Below are positions 3,756 to 48,049 of a stretch of 64,000 nucleotides of DNA, one piece after another. The stretch's first letter is position 1. Each line of letters opens with the position of its first letter. The stretch comes from Candidatus Microsaccharimonas sp. GTDB lineage: Bacteria > Patescibacteriota > Saccharimonadia > Saccharimonadales > Saccharimonadaceae. Where the stretch lies: the NCBI GenBank assembly GCA_049304275.1, contig JBAQNZ010000017.1:11890-75889 (forward strand), written 5' to 3'. A model generated the notes under the pieces. That model did no database searches, was not told where the DNA came from, and saw only the letters and a list, made by a program, of their open reading frames with translations. The position numbers and the translations under genes were made by a program.

Positions 3756-3762
3756 AGAAGAC

Positions 3763-4227
3763 TCAGACTTCCGATCCAGTCCGCCGTTTGAGGGCAGCCT
3801 GCACCTGCCAGTGGTTGATCCCGAGGGAATCGAACAGCTGTTCGACATCGGGATCCTGCTGGTCGATGATCGCGTGAAGCAGATGGTCCGTACGCACTTT
3901 CGCATTCGGTCCGCTCTCTTCGCGAGCGATCTTCAGGGCAAGCTGGATGCTCTCAGTGAGCGGTCGGGTATACCCGATCACCGCCAACTCACCCTTGCGG
4001 GGTTCGTACATCTTGCCAACCTCTTCCCGAGCCTTTTCGAGGTCGGGTGAGAAGTCAGCCAGTGTCTTTCCAACATAGTCGGCCTGAGGCCGCAACATGA
4101 AAGCGAGTACGACGTGCGCTGGGCCTTTCACGCGGTGAACAAGGAGTTTGACCTCCAATGCCGCCACATCCATGGCTGCCAGCGTTTGCGACGTAGCGTT
4201 CAGGGGGGTGAGGTGTTCGATGGTCAT
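3763..4227 (-). CDS. Stand-alone Clp N-terminal (Clp_N repeat) domain protein
   Basis: The C-terminal half, LTESIQLALKIAREESGPNAKVRTDHLLHAIIDQQDPDVEQLFDSLGINHWQVQAAL, matches the Clp_N repeat pattern (helix, then xxHLLlall, then lGv). The gene is much more GC-rich than its neighbours. Confidence 0.55.
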   Translation of the reverse strand: MTIEHLTPLNATSQTLAAMDVAALEVKLLVHRVKGPAHVVLAFMLRPQADYVGKTLADFSPDLEKAREEVGKMYEPRKGELAVIGYTRPLTESIQLALKIAREESGPNAKVRTDHLLHAIIDQQDPDVEQLFDSLGINHWQVQAALKRRTGSEV

Positions 4228-8730: not shown

Positions 8731-11352
8731 TTACTTACGGCCGGACTTACGGTTTTGGCGTTGGTTCTTTTTCTTCTTGCGCGCCGTGTTCTTTTTATGA
8801 TGCGCTTCACTAACGGTAGCGTCTTTTTTGACTGAAAATTCCTTATCGAGGTTCGATGCACCAGAGGTGATCTCGTTCACACCCTTTTCAACCGACGATT
8901 CGGCTAGCCGAGTCAGCTCGGTATCATAATCTTCATCAGTCCGTGCCAATGCGTCGCGAGGAGTAACGTGCATGACTGTTCGAAGCACTTCGTCGCGGAG
9001 CGTCGCCTGCAGACTATCGAATAGTTTCTGCGATTCACTACGGTATTCAACCAGTGGATCACGTTGTCCGACGCTACGCCAGTGAATACCATCACGAAGG
9101 TGCTGCATGTTCTCAAGGTGTTGCATCCAAAGGGTATCGAGAACCTGCAAATACACTTCGCGCTCGACTTTGCGCATCACGTCAGTTTCTAGTTCATCTT
9201 CTTTTTTCTTGTAGAATTTTTGGACGGCTTTTAGAGCCTGCTCAAATCGAGCCTTGTCATTCTTTTCCAGACCGATCACCTTCAGTGTCTTGTCGTCAAT
9301 TGGGAACACGCTCTCGAATTCATCGCGGAAGTTCTTGTTGTTCTTTGCTGGCAGTACGGTTAGTTCACGGACTTTTGCCTCAACCAGTCGTTCAAGTTCA
9401 CTTTTAATGTCTTCCCCGCTAAGGATCTTGCGACGAATCGTATACACCACGCGACGGTGTCGGTTAATCACATTGTCGTATTGCACCACGTTTTTACGAA
9501 TATCAAAGTTGAATCCCTCGACACGTTTCTGGGCGGCCTCAAGCGTCTTTGATACCATACGGTGCTGAATTGGTGTTTCATCGTCCAGGCCGATACGCTC
9601 CATTAGGGCCGAAATTCGCTCACCCTGGAAGATACGCATCAAGTCGTCTTCGGTCGAGACGTAGAATTGAGTTTCACCAGGGTCACCCTGACGTCCACCA
9701 CGACCACGAAGCTGGTTATCAATACGTCGTGATTCGTGACGCTCGGAACCAAGGACAACTAACCCGCCTAGTTCAGTCACGCCCTTACCAAGCTTAATAT
9801 CAGTACCACGACCAGCAATGTTAGTTGCCAGTGTCACCGCACCCTTTTCGCCGGCTTTGTCGACAATGGCCGCTTCACGCTCGTTGTTTTTAGCGTTCAA
9901 TAATTCATAGGGAATCTTTGCCTTGGTTAGCCAATCTGCAATCAATTCGTTTTTTGCAATCGAAGCAGAACCAACCAGAACCGGTCGTCCTTGTTTGTGA
10001 TATTCAGCGATAGCATCAGCGATTGCCTTTAATTTCGCTTTTTCGGTACGGAAAATCAGGTCTTGCTTGTCGATACGTGCGATGGGACGATTCGATGGTA
10101 CCTGAACAACTTCCAAGCTATAGATTTGTGAGAATTCTTCAGCTTCGGTAAAAGCTGTACCGGTCATTCCCGATAACTTTTTATACAAACGGAAATAGTT
10201 TTGGAAGGAAACAGTTGCTAGTGTCATGCTCTCTTGCAAGACAGGAACGTTTTCCTTAGCTTCGATTGCCTGGTGAAGACCTTCGTTATAGCGACGGCCC
10301 TGCATCAACCGTCCGGTAAACTCGTCGACAATAATCACTTCACCTTCCTTGGTGACAACGTAATCTTTGTCGCGGCGGAACAGCGTCTGGGCGCGAAGAG
10401 CTTGGTCCATGTGATAGACCGAACGGACGTATTCAGGGCTGTAGAGGTTTTTGACACCAAGGAGTCGCTGTACTTTATCGACACCATCATCGGTTAGGGC
10501 GACCATACGCCGTTTTTCATCGAGGACATAATCTTCTGGTGTCAACTTAGCTGCTACCTTCGCAAACTGTAGATAACTCTCTGGATTCTCGGCTGCTGGC
10601 GCACTAATAATAAGCGGTGTTCGCGCTTCATCGATCAAAATACTGTCTACTTCGTCGACGATCGCAAAATTCAGATCACGCTGACGCAGTAGTTCGACTT
10701 CGTTTACCATGTTGTCGCGCAGATAGTCGAATCCGAACTCGTTGTTCGTTCCATAAGTAATATCTGCCGCATAGGCTTCTTTACGAGTTGAAGGTCGAAG
10801 CTTCTTGATACGTGGATCATCGTGATCAGGATTGTCGAATGTTGGATCATACACAAATGAGGCTTCATTGATAATTACTCCAACACTCATGCCTAGAAAG
10901 TCGTACAGCTCGCCCATCCAGCCAGCGTCACGCTGGGCCAGATAGTCGTTGACGGTGACGACGTGGACACCTTTACCTTCGAGAGCATTCAGATATACTG
11001 GCAAGGTAGCGACGAGCGTCTTACCCTCACCTGTCTTCATTTCGGCGACATTTCCTTCGTGCAGGACCATACCACCAATCAACTGAACATCGAAGTGACG
11101 CATACCCATGACACGATCACTCGCCTCACGTACCAGTGCAAATGCATCTGGTAATAGGGTATCGAGCGACTGCCCTTTTTTAGAAAGCTGCTTTTTTAGA
11201 ATGTCGGTCTGTTTTCGAAGATCGGTCATTGATAACTTTTTATATGTATCGGTCAGTACATTAATGATATCGACTTTTTTTTGTAGTCGCTTAATGATCT
11301 TCTTTTGTGGGTCACCAAAAATCTTAGTGAGCGCGCCTTGCCTACTTATCAT
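8731..11352 (-). CDS. secA: Preprotein translocase ATPase SecA
   Basis: 873 aa with MKTGEGKTLV Walker A, DEVDSILIDEARTPLIIS, and TNIAGRGTDIKLG. The C-terminus is a Lys/Arg-rich tail without the Cys zinc finger. Confidence 0.95.
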   Translation of the reverse strand: MISRQGALTKIFGDPQKKIIKRLQKKVDIINVLTDTYKKLSMTDLRKQTDILKKQLSKKGQSLDTLLPDAFALVREASDRVMGMRHFDVQLIGGMVLHEGNVAEMKTGEGKTLVATLPVYLNALEGKGVHVVTVNDYLAQRDAGWMGELYDFLGMSVGVIINEASFVYDPTFDNPDHDDPRIKKLRPSTRKEAYAADITYGTNNEFGFDYLRDNMVNEVELLRQRDLNFAIVDEVDSILIDEARTPLIISAPAAENPESYLQFAKVAAKLTPEDYVLDEKRRMVALTDDGVDKVQRLLGVKNLYSPEYVRSVYHMDQALRAQTLFRRDKDYVVTKEGEVIIVDEFTGRLMQGRRYNEGLHQAIEAKENVPVLQESMTLATVSFQNYFRLYKKLSGMTGTAFTEAEEFSQIYSLEVVQVPSNRPIARIDKQDLIFRTEKAKLKAIADAIAEYHKQGRPVLVGSASIAKNELIADWLTKAKIPYELLNAKNNEREAAIVDKAGEKGAVTLATNIAGRGTDIKLGKGVTELGGLVVLGSERHESRRIDNQLRGRGGRQGDPGETQFYVSTEDDLMRIFQGERISALMERIGLDDETPIQHRMVSKTLEAAQKRVEGFNFDIRKNVVQYDNVINRHRRVVYTIRRKILSGEDIKSELERLVEAKVRELTVLPAKNNKNFRDEFESVFPIDDKTLKVIGLEKNDKARFEQALKAVQKFYKKKEDELETDVMRKVEREVYLQVLDTLWMQHLENMQHLRDGIHWRSVGQRDPLVEYRSESQKLFDSLQATLRDEVLRTVMHVTPRDALARTDEDYDTELTRLAESSVEKGVNEITSGASNLDKEFSVKKDATVSEAHHKKNTARKKKKNQRQNRKSGRK

Positions 11353-16532: not shown

Positions 16533-16545
16533 CTGTATCTACTAT

Positions 16546-16585
16546 AAAGTAAAGCCACAAGCTTTAATAGCTGTGGCTTTACTTT
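16546..16585 (-). terminator. Hairpin terminator after the FMN reductase gene
   Basis: aaagtaaagccaca / tgtggctttacttt forms a perfect 14-bp stem with a 12-nt loop. On the minus strand it ends in UUU. Confidence 0.6.
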
Positions 16586-16598
16586 ATGAAAATGTTTA

Positions 16599-19254: not shown

Positions 19255-19302
19255 AATACATTTCCTTATCGTGTGTTTTCAGCAAAACTTTGAGTTTTAA
19301 TG

Positions 19303-19332
19303 ACGTCCTACGCTATATATAGCGTAGGACGT
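19303..19332. repeat. Perfect 30-bp palindrome between proS and greA
   Basis: acgtcctacgctata|tatagcgtaggacgt. No flanking U-tract on either strand. Confidence 0.7.
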
Positions 19333-19345
19333 GCCAAAAACATCT

Positions 19346-24381: not shown

Positions 24382-25116
24382 TTATTTGTCCTCACCTTTT
24401 TCTTCATTCTTTTCTACAACTGGTTTTGCTTTGCCCTGACCCTCTTCGATCGCTTGGCGAACGTAGTCAAGTAACAATGAAATACCTTTGATCGCATCGT
24501 CATTACCAGGAATAACATAGTCAACCAATGTTGGGTCAGCGTTAGTGTCAACGACGGCAACCACAGGAATGCCCAGGTTCTTTGCTTCGTTAATTGCGTT
24601 TGCGTCACCGATAACGTCAGTAAGGAACAGCGCGCCTGGTTTGCCGCTTAATTCTTTAATACCACTGTATTTCAAGTTCAGCGCATCGATGTCTTCTTGG
24701 AAACGTTGGACTTCTAGCTTGTTGTAACGCTTTTCAAGGTCACCAGCTGCCATTCGCTTTTCAAGGTCACGAAGCTTTTTGATTTGTTGCGTGACGGTCG
24801 CGACGTTTGTCAGGGTTCCACCCATCCAACGTTCGGTCATGTATGGCTGCTTTAGCTGTTCAGCCATTGCCTTCACCGCTGCTTTGGTTTGCTTTTTCGT
24901 CGCAACGAACAGAATCGGCTTGCCAGCAGCGACAACTGAGGTCAGGAAAGGCAATGCCTTTTCTAAACCTTCAACAGTTTTCGTTAGGTCAATAATATGA
25001 GCGTCTTGACGCTTTGAGTGGATGTATGGCGCCATTTTCGGGTGCCAACGGCTCGTTTTGTGTCCAAAGTGAACACCGGCTTCGAGCAACGCCTTAATAT
25101 CGACAGTAACTGCCAT
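24382..25116 (-). CDS. rpsB: 30S ribosomal protein S2
   Basis: LLEAGVHFGHKTSRWHPKM N-terminus. 244 aa with an acidic/Lys tail. Confidence 0.95.
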   Translation of the reverse strand: MAVTVDIKALLEAGVHFGHKTSRWHPKMAPYIHSKRQDAHIIDLTKTVEGLEKALPFLTSVVAAGKPILFVATKKQTKAAVKAMAEQLKQPYMTERWMGGTLTNVATVTQQIKKLRDLEKRMAAGDLEKRYNKLEVQRFQEDIDALNLKYSGIKELSGKPGALFLTDVIGDANAINEAKNLGIPVVAVVDTNADPTLVDYVIPGNDDAIKGISLLLDYVRQAIEEGQGKAKPVVEKNEEKGEDK

Positions 25117-25230: not shown

Positions 25231-25329
25231 GGGGTAAGGTTAGCTTGTTTCCTTTCTATTATTTAGAGAAACTAAAAAGAGCCCGTTTCGATAAATAATA
25301 GAAAGGAAACGAGGCGATGATGTTACCCC
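25231..25329. repeat. Long hairpin / inverted repeat between the divergent rpsB and rpmE promoters
   Basis: A 19-bp perfect inverted repeat, gtttcctttctattattta (25247-25265) with taaataatagaaaggaaac (25292-25310), extended by ggggtaa (25231-25237) pairing with ttacccc (25323-25329). Confidence 0.6.
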
Positions 25330-25352: not shown

Positions 25353-25358
25353 TACAAT
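25353..25358 (+). promoter_or_regulatory. -10 box TACAAT, 10 nt upstream of the rpmE ATG at 25369 (leaderless-type)
   Basis: Sequence tacaat-gtatcagatt-ATG. Confidence 0.4.
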
Positions 25359-25368
25359 GTATCAGATT

Positions 25369-25695
25369 ATGAAGACAACCCTACATCCAACTGACTACCG
25401 CCCTGTCGTATTTATCGACGAGGTTGCTGGTTTTAGCTTTTTGACCCAGTCAACAGCGCAAACCAACGAAACTATCACCTGGGAAGATGGCAACGAGTAC
25501 CCCCTGGTAAAGGTACATATCTCAAGTGCCTCTCACCCCTTCTTTACCGGCGAAGAAAAGATCATCGACACCGAAGGTCGTGTCGACCGATTCAAGAACC
25601 GTGCAGCTGCCGCTGATGCACGTAAAATCGAACTTGCGAACAAAGCAAAAAAGACCGCTGCTAGCAAAGCCAAGAAAACACCTAGCGAAAACTAG
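25369..25695 (+). CDS. rpmE: 50S ribosomal protein L31, type B (no CxxC zinc motif), with a Lys/Ala-rich C-terminal extension
   Basis: [15 protein letters not shown]...[23 protein letters not shown]. The ATG at 25357 overlaps the -10 box, so 25369 is preferred. Confidence 0.85.
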
Positions 25696-43950: not shown

Positions 43951-45135
43951 CTACTCCTCTGTCTTTTTGTGCTTTTTGCGGCGACGTAGAAAAGCTGGTG
44001 TATCGGATTCATCATCTTTTTCGACCGAGTGATTCCACATATTTTCGCCGTTCTCTTCGGCAAAAATCTCGGCAGATCCACTTTGATCAAGGCTGAGGTC
44101 GACACTATCGACTGCTTCATCAGTCAAACGGGTTTCGGTTTGAGTTTCTTCGGGTCCATTGTCGGTTTCTTGGAAGTAGGCTGAATCGAATCCAGTTGCA
44201 ATCACCGTGATGATTAACTCGTCTTCGATTTCAGGTTTCAAGGTCGCTCCGAAGATGATGTTCGCATCAGGCGAAACAGCACTGGTGATGATCTCGGCTG
44301 CTTCCTGGATTTCGCTCATACTCATGTCGTAACCACCGGTCACGTTGAATAAAACACCCTTAGCACCATCAATTGATACTTCGATTAGTGGTGATTCAAT
44401 GGCCTGCTGTGCAGCCTGGGCGGCACGATTGTCGCCGCTAGCACGTCCAATACCCATCAGGGCTGAACCGGCATTACTCATAATCGCCTTTACGTCGGCA
44501 AAGTCGAGGTTGATCAGTCCGTGTTCAGTGATCAGTTCAGAGATGCCTTGAACACCCTGACGAAGGACGTCATCGGCAATTTTGAAGGTCTCTAATAGTG
44601 GCGTACGTCGGTCGATCGTCTGTAGTAAACGATCGTTAGGAATGGTGATGAGTGTATCGACGTGACGGCGAAGTTGGTTAATCGCCCAATCGGCGTTCGT
44701 ACGACGTTTTTGACCCTCAAAGCTGAACGGCTTTGTCGCAACGCCGACCACCAAGATACCCATTTCTCGGGCGACTTCAGCGACGACGTATCCTGCACCA
44801 CTTCCGGTTCCACCACCAGCACCAATCGTGACAAATACCATGTCAGCACCGGTCAATGCATCACGGATTTCATCGCGTGATTCGTTTGCGGCCGCTTCAC
44901 CAACCGAAGGATCAGCACCCGCACCCAGTCCACCCGTCGTGCTGTGGCCAAGATGAATTTTTATGTCTGCTTTTGAGTTATGGAGGGCTTGGGCGTCAGT
45001 GTTCATTGCAATGAACTGTACACCGGCAAGTCCGGCATCTTTCATGCGGTTGACGGCTGAACCGCCGGCACCACCAACACCAACCACCTTAATGCTGGCA
45101 AAGGTTTGGATGTCACTTGGTTTCACTTCAGGCAT
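43951..45135 (-). CDS. ftsZ: Cell division GTPase FtsZ
   Basis: GGGTGSGAG tubulin signature and NTDAQAL. The C-terminal tail is [11 protein letters not shown]. Confidence 0.95.
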
Positions 45136-45204: not shown

Positions 45205-46434
45205 CTAGGCGCGGAAACGAGCAAATAATTTAGACACGAATCCGCCAGCAGACTTGATGTTCATCGTACTTTTTTTGTTCGGTGTTCGTCCCGCTAGGCG
45301 TTCGGCATCTATTAACATCAGTCCGATTGCCGTTGCAAAAGATGGTTTCTCGATATTATCTGCAACTCCACCATAGCCGGTTGGCTTGCCAATTCGTGCT
45401 GCCAGACCTAAATACTCTTTAGCATATTCATCGATATGTTTCAGTTGGGCGGTGCCTCCCGTCAGTACGACACCACTTGGCAACTTGCCGGCACGGCCAG
45501 CTTTTTTCAGTTCATGTTGAACAGCTTCAAAAATTTCTTCTAAGCGAGCTTCGACGATTTCATCAATATCCTTTGTTTCAAAACTGTGAATGTCACCTTC
45601 GTGTTTCAAACTGATACCTGCGTTATCTTTTCGAGCAACGGCCGAGGCATGTTCTAATTTAATTTTTTCAGCGATTTCAGGATCAGTTTTGAGGCCAATC
45701 GCTAAGTCGTTGGTAATATTGACTCCTCCGACAGGGACAACCGCAGTGTACTGCAAATCCCCTTCTTCATACACGGCAATACTTGTCGTTGCTCCACCGA
45801 TATCGATGATGGCAACACCATTCTCGATTTGCTGTTCACCTAACACCGCTCGAGCTGCCGCGACAGCCGTCACTACCACTGAATGTGGTTCGACTTTTGC
45901 GGTTTCAGCTGCCTTTTGAACGTTCACTAGATATGGGGTCAGCCCAGAAATAACATGCGCGTCGATTTCAAGGCGCGTACCAGTCATACCGATCGGGTCT
46001 TTGATATTATCTTGGCCGTCTAATTTATAGGCATGCGGGATAATATCTAAAATTTCACGGTTTGCAGGCACTTTACCCAGTGTCGCCACCTCTTCAATAC
46101 GTGCCAAGTCGTCGCGAGTAATCTCGTGATCGGGCGTACCAACAGCAACCATCCCATCGGCGTGCGTACTAAGAATATGCGCACCGTTTACGCTAATCGT
46201 TGCCCCGTCAACTTGATAACCGCTCATTCGCTCGGCTTCACCCAAAGCATCATCAATCGCCTGTGCAGGACCATTTAAATTAACGACCACGCCTTTGCGC
46301 ATGCCGCTGTTATGAGCCTGACCGACACCAACAATCGTCGGAACACCGGTTGTACCGTCGATGTGTGCGACGACTGTTCTGACAGTTGTCGTGCCTATGT
46401 CGATACCGACGGCGTAGGAAGAACCTTCTTGCAT
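45205..46434 (-). CDS. ftsA: Cell division protein FtsA
   Basis: Actin-fold motifs (VGIDIGTTTVR, IIDIGGATTSIAV, VLTGGTAQL) and a C-terminal amphipathic tail. Lies upstream of ftsZ. Confidence 0.9.
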   Translation of the reverse strand: MQEGSSYAVGIDIGTTTVRTVVAHIDGTTGVPTIVGVGQAHNSGMRKGVVVNLNGPAQAIDDALGEAERMSGYQVDGATISVNGAHILSTHADGMVAVGTPDHEITRDDLARIEEVATLGKVPANREILDIIPHAYKLDGQDNIKDPIGMTGTRLEIDAHVISGLTPYLVNVQKAAETAKVEPHSVVVTAVAAARAVLGEQQIENGVAIIDIGGATTSIAVYEEGDLQYTAVVPVGGVNITNDLAIGLKTDPEIAEKIKLEHASAVARKDNAGISLKHEGDIHSFETKDIDEIVEARLEEIFEAVQHELKKAGRAGKLPSGVVLTGGTAQLKHIDEYAKEYLGLAARIGKPTGYGGVADNIEKPSFATAIGLMLIDAERLAGRTPNKKSTMNIKSAGGFVSKLFARFRA

Positions 46435-46494
46435 GTCCCTAAGTATACCGCTTACGTCTGGTGTTGCAAAGTTTTAATAGCTAAAAAGCCAGAA

Positions 46495-46745
46495 GCTAAT
46501 CGCCAAACACTCCTACATCTCGGAGGCCGCTCTATGGGGAACTTTGTTCGCCCATGGCGCTCGGCTCGCCCTTACGGGGACATCCTCCTCTTTGCAGGAG
46601 TGTTCGGCGATTAGCCACATATATTAGCCCATTCTTTATCAGCGTTTTCTTGAGGAGGATGTCCCCTCCAGGGCGAGCCGAGCGCCACAGGCTGACGAAG
46701 TCACCTGTAGAGCGGCCTCCGAGAGAGAATGATGATAAAGAATGG
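46495..46745. repeat. Nested inverted-repeat element (A-B-A'-C-B'-C'); candidate structured ncRNA or MITE/REP-like element
   Basis: A 46495-46514 pairs with A' 46596-46615 (one mismatch). B 46519-46590 pairs with B' 46652-46723. C 46629-46641 pairs with C' 46733-46745. Details are in the findings. Confidence 0.8.
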
Positions 46746-46748
46746 AAC

Positions 46749-47504
46749 TTATAGTCTTGTGAGAATTTCAACACCGTCTTCGGTGACAAGAACGGTGTGC
46801 TCAAAATGTGCTGCCATACTGCCATCACGTGTCGAAATTGTCCACTTGTCGTCGTCTACACGGATCTTCTCACCACCAAGAGTCGCCATCGGCTCGATTG
46901 CGATCGTATCACCAGGTGTCAGTAATTTACCAGTTCCCCTGCGGCCATAGTTCGGAACTTCGGGGGCTTCGTGCATTTCGTGACCAACTCCGTGTCCTAC
47001 CAACTCGCGAATAATACCTAGTTTTGCCTCGTTCAAGACTTTTTCAACAGCAGCACCAATATCTCCGATGCGGACGGGGCCCTTAATTGCATCAATGCCA
47101 GCGTATAAGCTTCGTTCGGTGGCATTAATGAGGTGCTTTTGCACTCCGTTCGGCTCATTGCCGACCACCATCGTAAAGGCACTGTCAGTTTTCATTCCCT
47201 TGTACGTAATAACGAGGTCAAAGCTAACAATGTCACCTTTTTGTAGAACGTATTCAGTTGGAATACCGTGAACAATTTGATCGTTTGTCGAAATACACAC
47301 GACGTTCGGGAAATTAACTTCGGATGTTTTATAGGTAGCGATGGCGCCCAGTCGTGCGATTTCTTTTTCCACCCAGCTATCGAGTTCTAGTTCGCTAACG
47401 CCTGGTTCTACCTGTGCTCGCAGTCCCTCGAAAATAGTAGCTAAGATCTTGCCACCTTCGCGCATTGCCTGAATTTCAGCCTCGGTTTTTTGTTTCTGCA
47501 CCAC
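46749..47504 (-). CDS. map: Methionine aminopeptidase, type I
   Basis: Metal ligands in the expected pattern (DIVSFD, FTMVVG, GHGVGHEMHE, IEPM, FEHT). 251 aa. Confidence 0.95.
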   Translation of the reverse strand: MVQKQKTEAEIQAMREGGKILATIFEGLRAQVEPGVSELELDSWVEKEIARLGAIATYKTSEVNFPNVVCISTNDQIVHGIPTEYVLQKGDIVSFDLVITYKGMKTDSAFTMVVGNEPNGVQKHLINATERSLYAGIDAIKGPVRIGDIGAAVEKVLNEAKLGIIRELVGHGVGHEMHEAPEVPNYGRRGTGKLLTPGDTIAIEPMATLGGEKIRVDDDKWTISTRDGSMAAHFEHTVLVTEDGVEILTRL

Positions 47505-48049
47505 TAGGCTAGCCCTCGACTTGTCAGCTCCTGCGCAATGCGATCATGCACCTGTCCCACCGAACCGATACCGTCAACGTGAACGACAGGAATATTCTGT
47601 TCAGTAAAGTACGCAAGAATTGGATACATTTCCTGACGATAAATATTCAATCTTTCATCGATAGCTTCAGAAGTGTCATCAGCACGACCACGAATATGGA
47701 GGCGGTTCAGCAGCTCTTCGTACGGTACTTCCAAAACGATCACGATACCGACTGAACGAGCATGTTCAGGCTGGCTGTCAATCAGCCATGTAGCTTGTTC
47801 GAGTTTACGAGGAAAGCCATCAAGGATAACGCGATCAACGTCGTGCGCACGCTTCAATGCCTCGCCCATAATACGAATGATCATGTCGTGCGAGACTAAC
47901 TGACCGGTCTGTAATCCTTCGATAATTTCAGGATCGTGAGTGTCACGCAGTAGTTGCCCAGCACTTAACCAACGCCACCCCATTCGAGCAGCCAACATCT
48001 GTCCCTGTACACTTTTACCCGAGCCCGCTGGGCCAAAAAATACAATCAT
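47504..48049 (-). CDS. adk: Adenylate kinase (short-lid form)
   Basis: P-loop GPAGSGKSVQG, ILDGFPRKLEQA and GRADD. It lies upstream of map, as in the canonical secY-adk-map order. Confidence 0.8.
   Translation of the reverse strand: MIVFFGPAGSGKSVQGQMLAARMGWRWLSAGQLLRDTHDPEIIEGLQTGQLVSHDMIIRIMGEALKRAHDVDRVILDGFPRKLEQATWLIDSQPEHARSVGIVIVLEVPYEELLNRLHIRGRADDTSEAIDERLNIYRQEMYPILAYFTEQNIPVVHVDGIGSVGQVHDRIAQELTSRGLA

Follow-up and report, generated by a model that had tools for sequence, protein, structure and literature searches.

The minus strand of the window, by which we mean the whole 64-kb stretch of Candidatus Microsaccharimonas DNA that was analyzed, carries recJ, a small gene, yqeY, adk, map, ftsA, ftsZ, nrdR and a VKOR gene in this order, with a 314-nt spacer separating the end of the map stop codon (46749) from the ftsA start codon (ATG, 46434). 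Saccharibacteria and CPR genomes are of about 1 Mb and contain very little intergenic DNA, and to our knowledge almost nothing is known about the non-coding or structural elements of Saccharibacteria and other CPR bacteria. A preliminary description had singled out this spacer for its base composition and its length. Its local GC richness is borne out (0.54-0.60, versus approximately 0.47 for the window); it is probably not the longest spacer in the window, as a crude ORF model yields gaps of 391 and 359 nt elsewhere and places it among the three longest. An origin or terminus site was ruled out, since the window contains no GC-skew switch. The spacer holds two related units, beta and alpha, each built of four helices (P1 to P4). 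We refer to the folded strand of each unit (minus for beta, plus for alpha in the window) as Y and to its reverse complement as X. The features of the locus are as follows:

43951-45135, minus strand: ftsZ, the next gene after ftsA
45205-46434, minus strand: ftsA, with its ATG at 46434
46442-46470, minus strand: ftsA promoter, TTGCAA-N16/17-TATACT, identified by promoter prediction and conservation in relatives
46492-46618, folded (Y) strand minus, in map/ftsA sense: unit beta, ftsA-proximal, covariance-model score 136.5 bits
46522-46588, minus strand: conserved core of beta (P2, three-way junction, P3 and P4)
46593-46613 paired with 46497-46517, minus strand: P1 of beta
46584-46588 paired with 46522-46526, minus strand: P2 of beta; GA/GA internal loop in beta
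46566-46580, minus strand: P3 hairpin of beta, loop GUAA
46528-46559, minus strand: P4 hairpin of beta, with a bulged C
46616-46628, no strand: AT-rich 13-nt spacer between alpha and beta
46624-46750, folded (Y) strand plus, antisense to map: unit alpha, map-proximal, covariance-model score 132.5 bits
46654-46720, plus strand: conserved core of alpha
46629-46649 paired with 46725-46745, plus strand: P1 of alpha
46654-46658 paired with 46716-46720, plus strand: P2 of alpha
46662-46676, plus strand: P3 of alpha
46683-46714, plus strand: P4 of alpha
46749-47504, minus strand: map, type I methionine aminopeptidase (Pfam PF00557, E = 8e-46)
47504-48049, minus strand: adk

Both direct reading of the sequence and a repeat finder reproduce the nested layout first proposed for the spacer, in which arms A/A' and C/C' each enclose one of two inverted copies, B and B'. 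Three inverted repeats are involved: I1 (46518-46590 versus 46652-46724, 73 nt, 84% complementary), I2 (arms 46495-46526 and 46584-46615, 81% complementary) and I3 (arms 46629-46658 and 46716-46745, 80% complementary). Arms A and C are present as described, but their limits had been drawn too narrowly, for they extend further inward via a conserved linker helix. Units alpha and beta are inverted paralogous copies of one ~125-nt Y-shaped hairpin module, and their Y strands point outward from the spacer. Each unit is far more stable than shuffled sequence (z -4.4 to -9.9), with a minimum free energy (MFE) of -69.9 kcal/mol for beta (z = -9.9), and of -56 kcal/mol for alpha on the plus strand versus -48.4 on the minus strand. 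Alpha begins 3-4 nt past the map stop codon, and the inner 8 bp of its P1 form an alpha-specific linker helix, CGUUUUCU/AGAGAAUG, that includes G-U pairs.

In the consensus fold, P1 is a helix of 21 bp, extendable to ~25 bp (RNAalifold on 11 units and a model-based alignment of 15 distinct units), followed by a symmetric NGA/GAN internal loop with invariant 5'-GA / 5'-GA that could form tandem G-A pairs. The essentially invariant GGAGG/CCUCC helix of P2 leads to a three-way junction whose Y strands (AUG, GCCGAG and G) are likewise essentially invariant. Two hairpins emerge from this junction, each with a bulged C: P3 has 5 bp and ends in an NNNA loop (GUAA, GAAA, GUCA, UCCA and UGCA, among others), while P4 has 13 bp and a loop of 3-4 nt. 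The beta core is nearly invariant in sequence between lineages, except in the P3 loop and distal P4, and these are also the only differences between the alpha and beta cores of the window: the P3 loop reads UCCA in alpha and GUAA in beta, and the distal P4 stems (CAGGCUGAC..GUCACCUG in alpha, UGGGCGAAC..GUUCCCCA in beta) are fully compensated. The two divergent 21-nt blocks had been read as hairpins of the same shape altered on both sides of the stem; variants from relatives confirm and extend this pattern.

The two units belong to a small, low-copy family without a match among described families. A scan for exact matches to two sequence blocks in 241 M metagenome records recovered the map-ftsA locus, one degenerate copy between rnj and ftsK, one chance match and nothing else. 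With filters off, a covariance model detected just the two units of this one locus in the 64-kb window, and no further copy was detected in ~290 kb of related loci. Among the matches listed for the 17-mer GGCGCTCGGCTCGCCCT against genome contigs, only L099, whose sequence equals that of L002, is real, and the others are chance matches in high-GC genomes. Rfam searches of the whole window at the gathering score returned nothing, and ARAGORN predicted no tRNA or tmRNA. At E<=10 over 46400-46800, Rfam returned only a plant miRNA-precursor model, far below threshold, on the long rod formed by pairing alpha with beta, and at E<=5 over five related loci, neither 6S RNA nor any other family was returned beyond the same type of sub-threshold plant model. 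There was no match in viral contigs (IMG/VR), nor by blastn to phages and plasmids, and we found no description of the element in the literature on repeats, non-coding RNA or inverted repeats of Saccharibacteria and Patescibacteria.

Other palindromic sequences are present in the window. Between the divergent genes rpsB (24382-25116, minus) and rpmE (approximately 25357-25695, plus) lies an AT-rich hairpin at 25238-25320 (arms 25244-25272 and 25285-25313) that resembles the base of a unit, with a ~20-bp stem, a UAGA/GAUA loop containing GA/GA and a 5-bp GAAAC/GUUUC helix. Its pyrimidine-rich 5' arm resembles the alpha arms, a 12-nt loop replaces the three-way junction, and its covariance-model score is 31.5 bits; it could be a core-less relative of the units or an S2/L31 leader structure. 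The gene for a class II aminoacyl-tRNA synthetase is separated from greA by a 48-nt near-perfect loopless palindrome (19294-19341, GTTTTAATGACGTCCTACGCTATA/TATAGCGTAGGACGTGCCAAAAAC) that takes up the whole gap, and at 16544-16587 a 16-bp stem without mismatches encloses a 12-nt loop (ATAAAGTAAAGCCACA...TGTGGCTTTACTTTAT).

The distribution of the units was traced through loci encoding Map proteins of decreasing identity to that of the window, together with the metagenome pattern scan. The arrangement of the window, with two units, recurs in L142-L144 (Map 94%). L002 and L010 (Map 96%) carry a single unit in opposite orientations inside the same flanks, the beta unit of L010 being inverted in situ relative to L002 without visible change to its core. 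In L141 (Map 95%; 3761-3896) a TGG microhomology marks the point at which the 5' half of alpha passes into the 3' half of beta, a fusion that resembles the product of slippage deletion between inverted copies. The spacer is empty and spans only 46-54 nt in L004 (Map 92%), L007 (87%), L145 (86%) and L154 (85%). Spacer lengths thus include 314 nt in the window, 334 nt in L142, 178-181 nt and 46-54 nt. The clade with 78% Map identity has the same two units with accessory genes in between, and only a remnant of the map-proximal unit persists in L151. The second locus, between rnj (RNase J) and ftsK, holds the degenerate copy and is represented by L133/L134. The element is thus dispensable, being absent in at least four intermediate lineages (those with an empty spacer), half-deleted in L141, a remnant in L151 and degenerate in L134. 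In L151 the ftsZ call at 8829-10018 is split into two ORFs, one of 216 aa that lacks a Pfam match and one of 180 aa with FtsZ_C; a frameshift or an assembly error may be responsible.

The positions of the two types are constant. Alpha-type units always adjoin map, with their Y strand antisense to map and with the linker helix GUUUUCU/AGAGAAU. Beta-type units always adjoin the ftsA promoter; their Y strand has the same sense as map and ftsA, the inverted L010 copy being the one exception. The order map, alpha, 0-0.8 kb of variable genes, beta and ftsA promoter is kept down to 78% Map identity, and both the alpha arms (CCATYCUUU...) and the beta arms (CAAC..CC..CCAG) are alignable between clades, with compensated differences. 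Alignable arms, together with a conserved order and type-specific linkers, indicate that the pair is old and has been vertically inherited with repeated loss rather than recently inserted. The same alignability led us to reject hypervariable arms created at insertion. Within the clade of 94-100% Map identity, the beta arms of the window, L142 and L002 differ more than expected, which may reflect two beta paralogues and their differential loss. Gene conversion between inverted copies is the better reading of two further patterns: both units of L142 carry one and the same G-to-A change, and alpha and beta of L136/L139 have a P4 type in common. The preliminary description had allowed for a random local palindrome should orthologues prove not to be conserved; orthologous conservation is in fact strong, and the module has long resided in the map-ftsA spacer of Candidatus Microsaccharimonas, although it can be dispensed with.

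This history bears on the initial suggestion of a MITE or REP-type mobile repeat, in which non-autonomous elements would have inserted downstream of map. Presence and absence do vary among close relatives, both orientations occur and a second, degenerate copy exists between rnj and ftsK, all of which a mobile repeat would explain. The termini of the units, however, are their least conserved part, the conserved part being internal, and comparison of the filled L002/L010 sites with the empty L004 site (TATAG/.../TTTTT) reveals no target-site duplication. No transposase is encoded within +/-10 kb in the relatives, only two loci were found in the 241 M metagenome records, and no other copy lies in the window. 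Moreover, the alpha and beta types hold their positions across deep lineages, pointing to ancestral presence followed by repeated loss. Variable termini and confinement to essentially one locus, with neither a target-site duplication nor a transposase, largely refute a repeat of this type, which we regard as highly improbable.

Covariation was assessed on the 15 distinct units recovered in all, and column conservation on an alignment of 11 units (A2, 129 columns), in which 57 of all 129 columns are invariant, including most of those in the core (invariant at columns 29-43, 47-56 and 58-63). Across the 15 units, 96.6% of cells pair, compared with 75% in shuffles and 41-45% with slid partners. 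Double-sided changes occur in 26 of 44 pairs, and the covariation score is 0.598, against 0.177 in shuffles and 0.09-0.15 with slid partners. None of 500 shuffles reached the observed value of any measure, and the RNAalifold covariation term is -11 kcal/mol. All 21 pairs of P1 vary, 20 of them by changes on both sides and the remaining one only through one unpaired cell, so that the sequence of P1 is free yet its pairing is kept. Distal P4 also covaries, with at least seven sequence variants that all keep the stem and the bulged C. P2, P3 and proximal P4 are invariant, and covariation therefore neither supports nor contradicts these helices. Selection on structure, originally proposed from the inner hairpin, can thus be extended to the whole outer stem, as compensatory change affects both in the 15 units.

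The covariation also distinguishes between the single units and the ~205-nt, 6S-like rod that the preliminary description had envisaged. The rod is indeed the thermodynamic minimum of the window sequence, being the MFE fold of the 271-nt region on both strands (approximately -151 kcal/mol, z -12.6 to -14.7), and the G-to-A change shared by the L142 units keeps alpha and beta complementary. P1 and P4 are nonetheless unpaired in the rod, and it is exactly these helices that covary; all covariation is within units, and other differences between alpha and beta are uncompensated (column 89 is changed from G to A only in the beta unit of L142, and the P3 loops differ). L002 and L010 also have just one unit each, those of L136 and L139 are separated by 0.8 kb, and no 6S match emerges from Rfam even at E = 10. 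The rod thus stands as a computed minimum and fails as the conserved form, and a 6S-like RNA formed by alpha:beta pairing is extremely unlikely. The comparison of units shows that selection maintains the fold rather than the stem sequence, and that its unit is the single hairpin, not the alpha:beta rod.

Selection also discriminates between strands. On the Y strand, G-U cells outnumber A-C cells by 39 to 11, with the opposite on the reverse complement, and Y is more stable than X in 6 of 9 units. Two G-U pairs are present in the alpha linker helix GUUUUCU/AGAGAAU in 7 of 8 alpha-type units, including the degenerate L134 copy, and in L147 both wobbles are replaced by Watson-Crick pairs. The excess of G-U over A-C cells on Y shows that selection has acted on the single-stranded fold of this strand, which speaks against a site functioning purely as double-stranded DNA. 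When retention of the bulges and of the GA loop is added, mere palindrome homogenization is disfavored as well. Part of the arm covariation could nevertheless be free of selection, through template-switching correction of palindromes. The extreme form of this argument holds that the element has no function and is a decaying palindrome cluster kept by palindrome correction at the DNA level and by gene conversion, a reading in keeping with its frequent loss, truncation or inversion and with plausible conversion in L142 and in the L136/L139 units of shared P4 type. The core is nonetheless invariant across lineages with 78% Map identity, the bulges and GA/GA loop have been retained instead of being corrected to perfect palindromes, and wobbles follow the 39:11 strand bias; we therefore hold an absence of function to be very unlikely.

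Predicted transcription signals in the spacer are confined to ftsA. The -10 box of its promoter (TATACT) stops 7 nt short of the ATG at 46434, and the -35 box (TTGCAA) is its own reverse complement. All relatives have retained the promoter whether or not they carry units (including L002, L004, L007, L010, L136, L142 and L151), and it is the only promoter-like site between 46200 and 47000, an interval in which no intrinsic terminator is predicted either. A U6 tract directly follows P1 only in L002, canonical terminators show no enrichment in this genome region, and lineages share no conserved sequence upstream of the folded strands. Because the units lie upstream of the ftsA promoter, they are not part of an ftsA leader transcribed from it. 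A riboswitch or leader of ftsA was rejected on the grounds that the units precede the conserved promoter, which is 7 nt away from the ATG, and that P1 and P2 form a constitutively stable duplex of ~30 bp. A -10 box is similarly close to the ATG in the accessory genes of L135 and L136, and probably in rpmE; ftsA and those genes appear to be leaderless or nearly so.

The short ORFs within the repeat, previously taken for products of its symmetry, are indeed artefacts and lack conservation; alpha-type units, for instance, have no ATG, and the beta unit of L136 has a stop only 3 codons in. A small protein was rejected as an explanation, since the 26-aa ORF with GGAGG-N7-ATG in beta is not conserved. 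A concatenated six-frame peptide query across the element gave no match at E<=0.01, a result without bearing on this question. Public annotations of L146 (1586-1981) and L148 (727-1122) call a 131-aa "protein" antisense to the map 3' end and the whole of alpha, which is almost certainly a spurious ORF arising from the GC-rich, stop-free core.

The scarcity of signals weighs on the possibility of two independent small RNA genes, each with its own promoter and producing a ~125-nt trans-acting RNA with its ends paired as P1. Paired termini, an invariant apical domain and a patchy distribution do resemble stand-alone non-coding RNAs, and the covariation and strand bias would be accounted for as well as by any structured RNA. 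In the window, however, neither unit is preceded by a sigma-70-like promoter on its folded strand. The upstream flanks are unconserved between lineages, the L002 unit begins ~4 nt past the map stop codon and leaves no room for an intergenic promoter, and L002 alone has a U-tract after P1. Taken together, these observations make independent genes quite improbable.

The element is most likely a structured RNA, and neither a 6S RNA nor a jumping element. Given units without a promoter or terminator of their own, such an RNA would come within longer transcripts, and it is probably processed from read-through transcription. Reasoning from sequence and predicted structure, we give about an even chance to a fuller model in which the folded molecule is RNA within longer transcripts, P1 acts as a processing or exonuclease-blocking duplex and the junction provides a binding surface. 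The beta RNA would derive from read-through of map or of accessory genes, and the alpha RNA from leftward transcripts of accessory genes. The two-turn P1 duplex would direct processing, block 3' exonucleases or both, as intercistronic RNase III hairpins do, and the invariant three-way junction may offer a specific surface to a conserved partner, either protein or RNA. Three observations count against a structured RNA: inversion in situ, as in L010, is odd for a cis element that depends on sense; relatives dispense with the element; and no promoter is predicted in the window for the folded strand of alpha, which is antisense to map.

The content of the spacer in relatives introduces a different perspective. 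The position of the 13-nt inter-unit spacer of the window is taken by 33 nt in L142 and by whole accessory genes in L136, L139 and L151. These include a 200-aa membrane protein gene in L132/L136 (L136, 1615-2217), a reverse-oriented DUF5677 gene in L139/L140 (L139, 4627-5301), with a product weakly similar to ABC-3C middle component 4, and, in L146-L148 (L146, approximately 1900-2091) and L151/L152 (L151, 6768-7304), small genes in reverse orientation. Alpha and beta are 0.8 kb apart in L136 and L139. Unrelated small genes fill the map-ftsA spacer even where Map proteins are 98% identical; in Microsaccharimonas, this spacer is a hot spot for the turnover of accessory genes.

Such a configuration would suit a strand-specific single-stranded DNA element, with T/Y hairpins, similar in shape to parvoviral ITRs, integron attC sites or the ssi priming signals of plasmids, serving as recombination, priming or mobilization sites that bracket an accessory-gene slot. 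The inverted pair, with its folded strands outward, surrounds unrelated cargo in L136, L139, L146 and L151. The cores of L002 and L010 are inverted in a flip/flop-like manner, the G-to-A change common to both L142 units suggests exchange of DNA, and a deletion derivative exists in L141. G-T pairs, GNA/GNNA loops and tandem G-A pairs also stabilize single-stranded DNA, and strand asymmetry alone thus cannot separate RNA from it. The units have loops of the GAA/GCA and GNNA kinds and tandem G-A pairs, which are stable in DNA hairpins, and both strands also fold under DNA energy parameters. Against this, no integrase, HUH or Rep gene, or transposase is found within +/-10 kb in any relative, and site-specific recombination between inverted units would invert the cargo, not insert or excise it. 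The stem bases are unconserved and lack core sites resembling an R box, the family is practically restricted to one locus and looks vertically inherited, and fixed-position G-U pairs exchanged with Watson-Crick pairs are more typical of RNA. On balance we consider a DNA element unlikely, though it is the main rival of a structured RNA.

A more speculative view, to which we assign a rather small likelihood, is that the hairpins may be the boundaries of a new CPR gene-slot system, or that the invariant three-way junction may be a new catalytic or protein-recruiting class of RNA that trims transcripts as they leave the slot. Under the former, Y-shaped strand-specific hairpins of single-stranded DNA or RNA would face outward while the accessory genes between them are swapped and the cores flip in place. 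The covarying and well-supported ~125-nt fold, with its invariant junction and no Rfam match, adjoins the cell-division operon and brackets a hot spot of gene turnover; it offers RNA biologists a new motif in which to study a binding partner, processing and possible catalysis. For genome biologists the fold also serves as a marker of a variable slot in otherwise streamlined genomes. Should it be only a decaying palindrome cluster, it would still document how inverted duplicates evolve in a minimal genome by compensation, conversion, flipping and microhomology deletion.

Comparison with known systems yields several partial likenesses. When together, two units can form a long rod with a central bubble, as in 6S RNA (RF00013); here, however, no model matches, the conserved structure is another than the rod, close relatives lack the element and at least two partial copies exist. 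A ~120-nt length, a helix closing the ends and two arms on a three-way junction recall 5S rRNA, phi29 pRNA and type III hammerheads, but consistent loop-loop complementarity of the pRNA kind is missing, and the hammerhead core (CUGANGA / GAA / H) is matched by the junction strands of neither Y (AUG / GCCGAG / G) nor X (C / CUCGGC / CAU). The T/Y-shaped terminal hairpins of parvoviruses (AAV ITRs) and integron attC sites offer a likeness in architecture, as a ~125-nt hairpin carries two small arms on a three-way junction and an inverted pair flanks variable genes. The presence of the core in both orientations within the same stem (L002 versus L010) recalls AAV flip/flop, and conservation of structure over stem sequence, together with strand-specific folding, recalls attC. 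The module, in contrast, resides in a bacterial chromosome and has neither a Rep/HUH gene nor an integrase in its vicinity. Its pattern of conservation is the reverse of that of attC, in which the stem base (R''/R') is kept and the apex varies, and whereas attC sites of one array share an orientation, these units are inverted relative to each other. By eye, the attC core sites RYYYAAC / GTTRRRY fit only L002/L010 (GTCTAAC / GTTAGAC), and neither of the stem bases in the window (GCTAATC, CCATTC) conforms to them; no integrase occurs in the neighborhoods.

Enterobacterial ERIC/IRU and REP/BIME elements share the context: they are imperfect palindromes of ~120 nt in transcribed intergenic spacers right after stop codons, with alternating orientation of neighbors, variable presence and a plausible role as mRNA 3'-end barriers. 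Members of those families are dispersed in tens to hundreds of copies and conserved along their entire length, whereas effectively one or two loci are seen here, with stem ends that are free in sequence, an invariant three-way-junction apex and neither a GTAG-type REP head nor a RAYT gene. REP, BIME and REPIN sequences are short (20-40 nt), high in copy and associated with RAYT, while the module is ~125 nt long, branched and low in copy, and no RAYT/Y1 transposase occurs in the neighborhoods of the relatives examined. RNase III hairpins, such as the R sites of phage T7 and those in the rnc and pnp leaders, match the module in their duplex of about two turns, internal loop and intercistronic location, and neither they nor the units have a promoter or terminator of their own; the likeness is one of predicted form, and RNase III sites lack a conserved branched apical domain. 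ERIC/BIME-type palindromes and intercistronic RNase III hairpins are the closest analogues of the module; neither group combines a conserved branched apex with free stems or occurs at so low a copy number.
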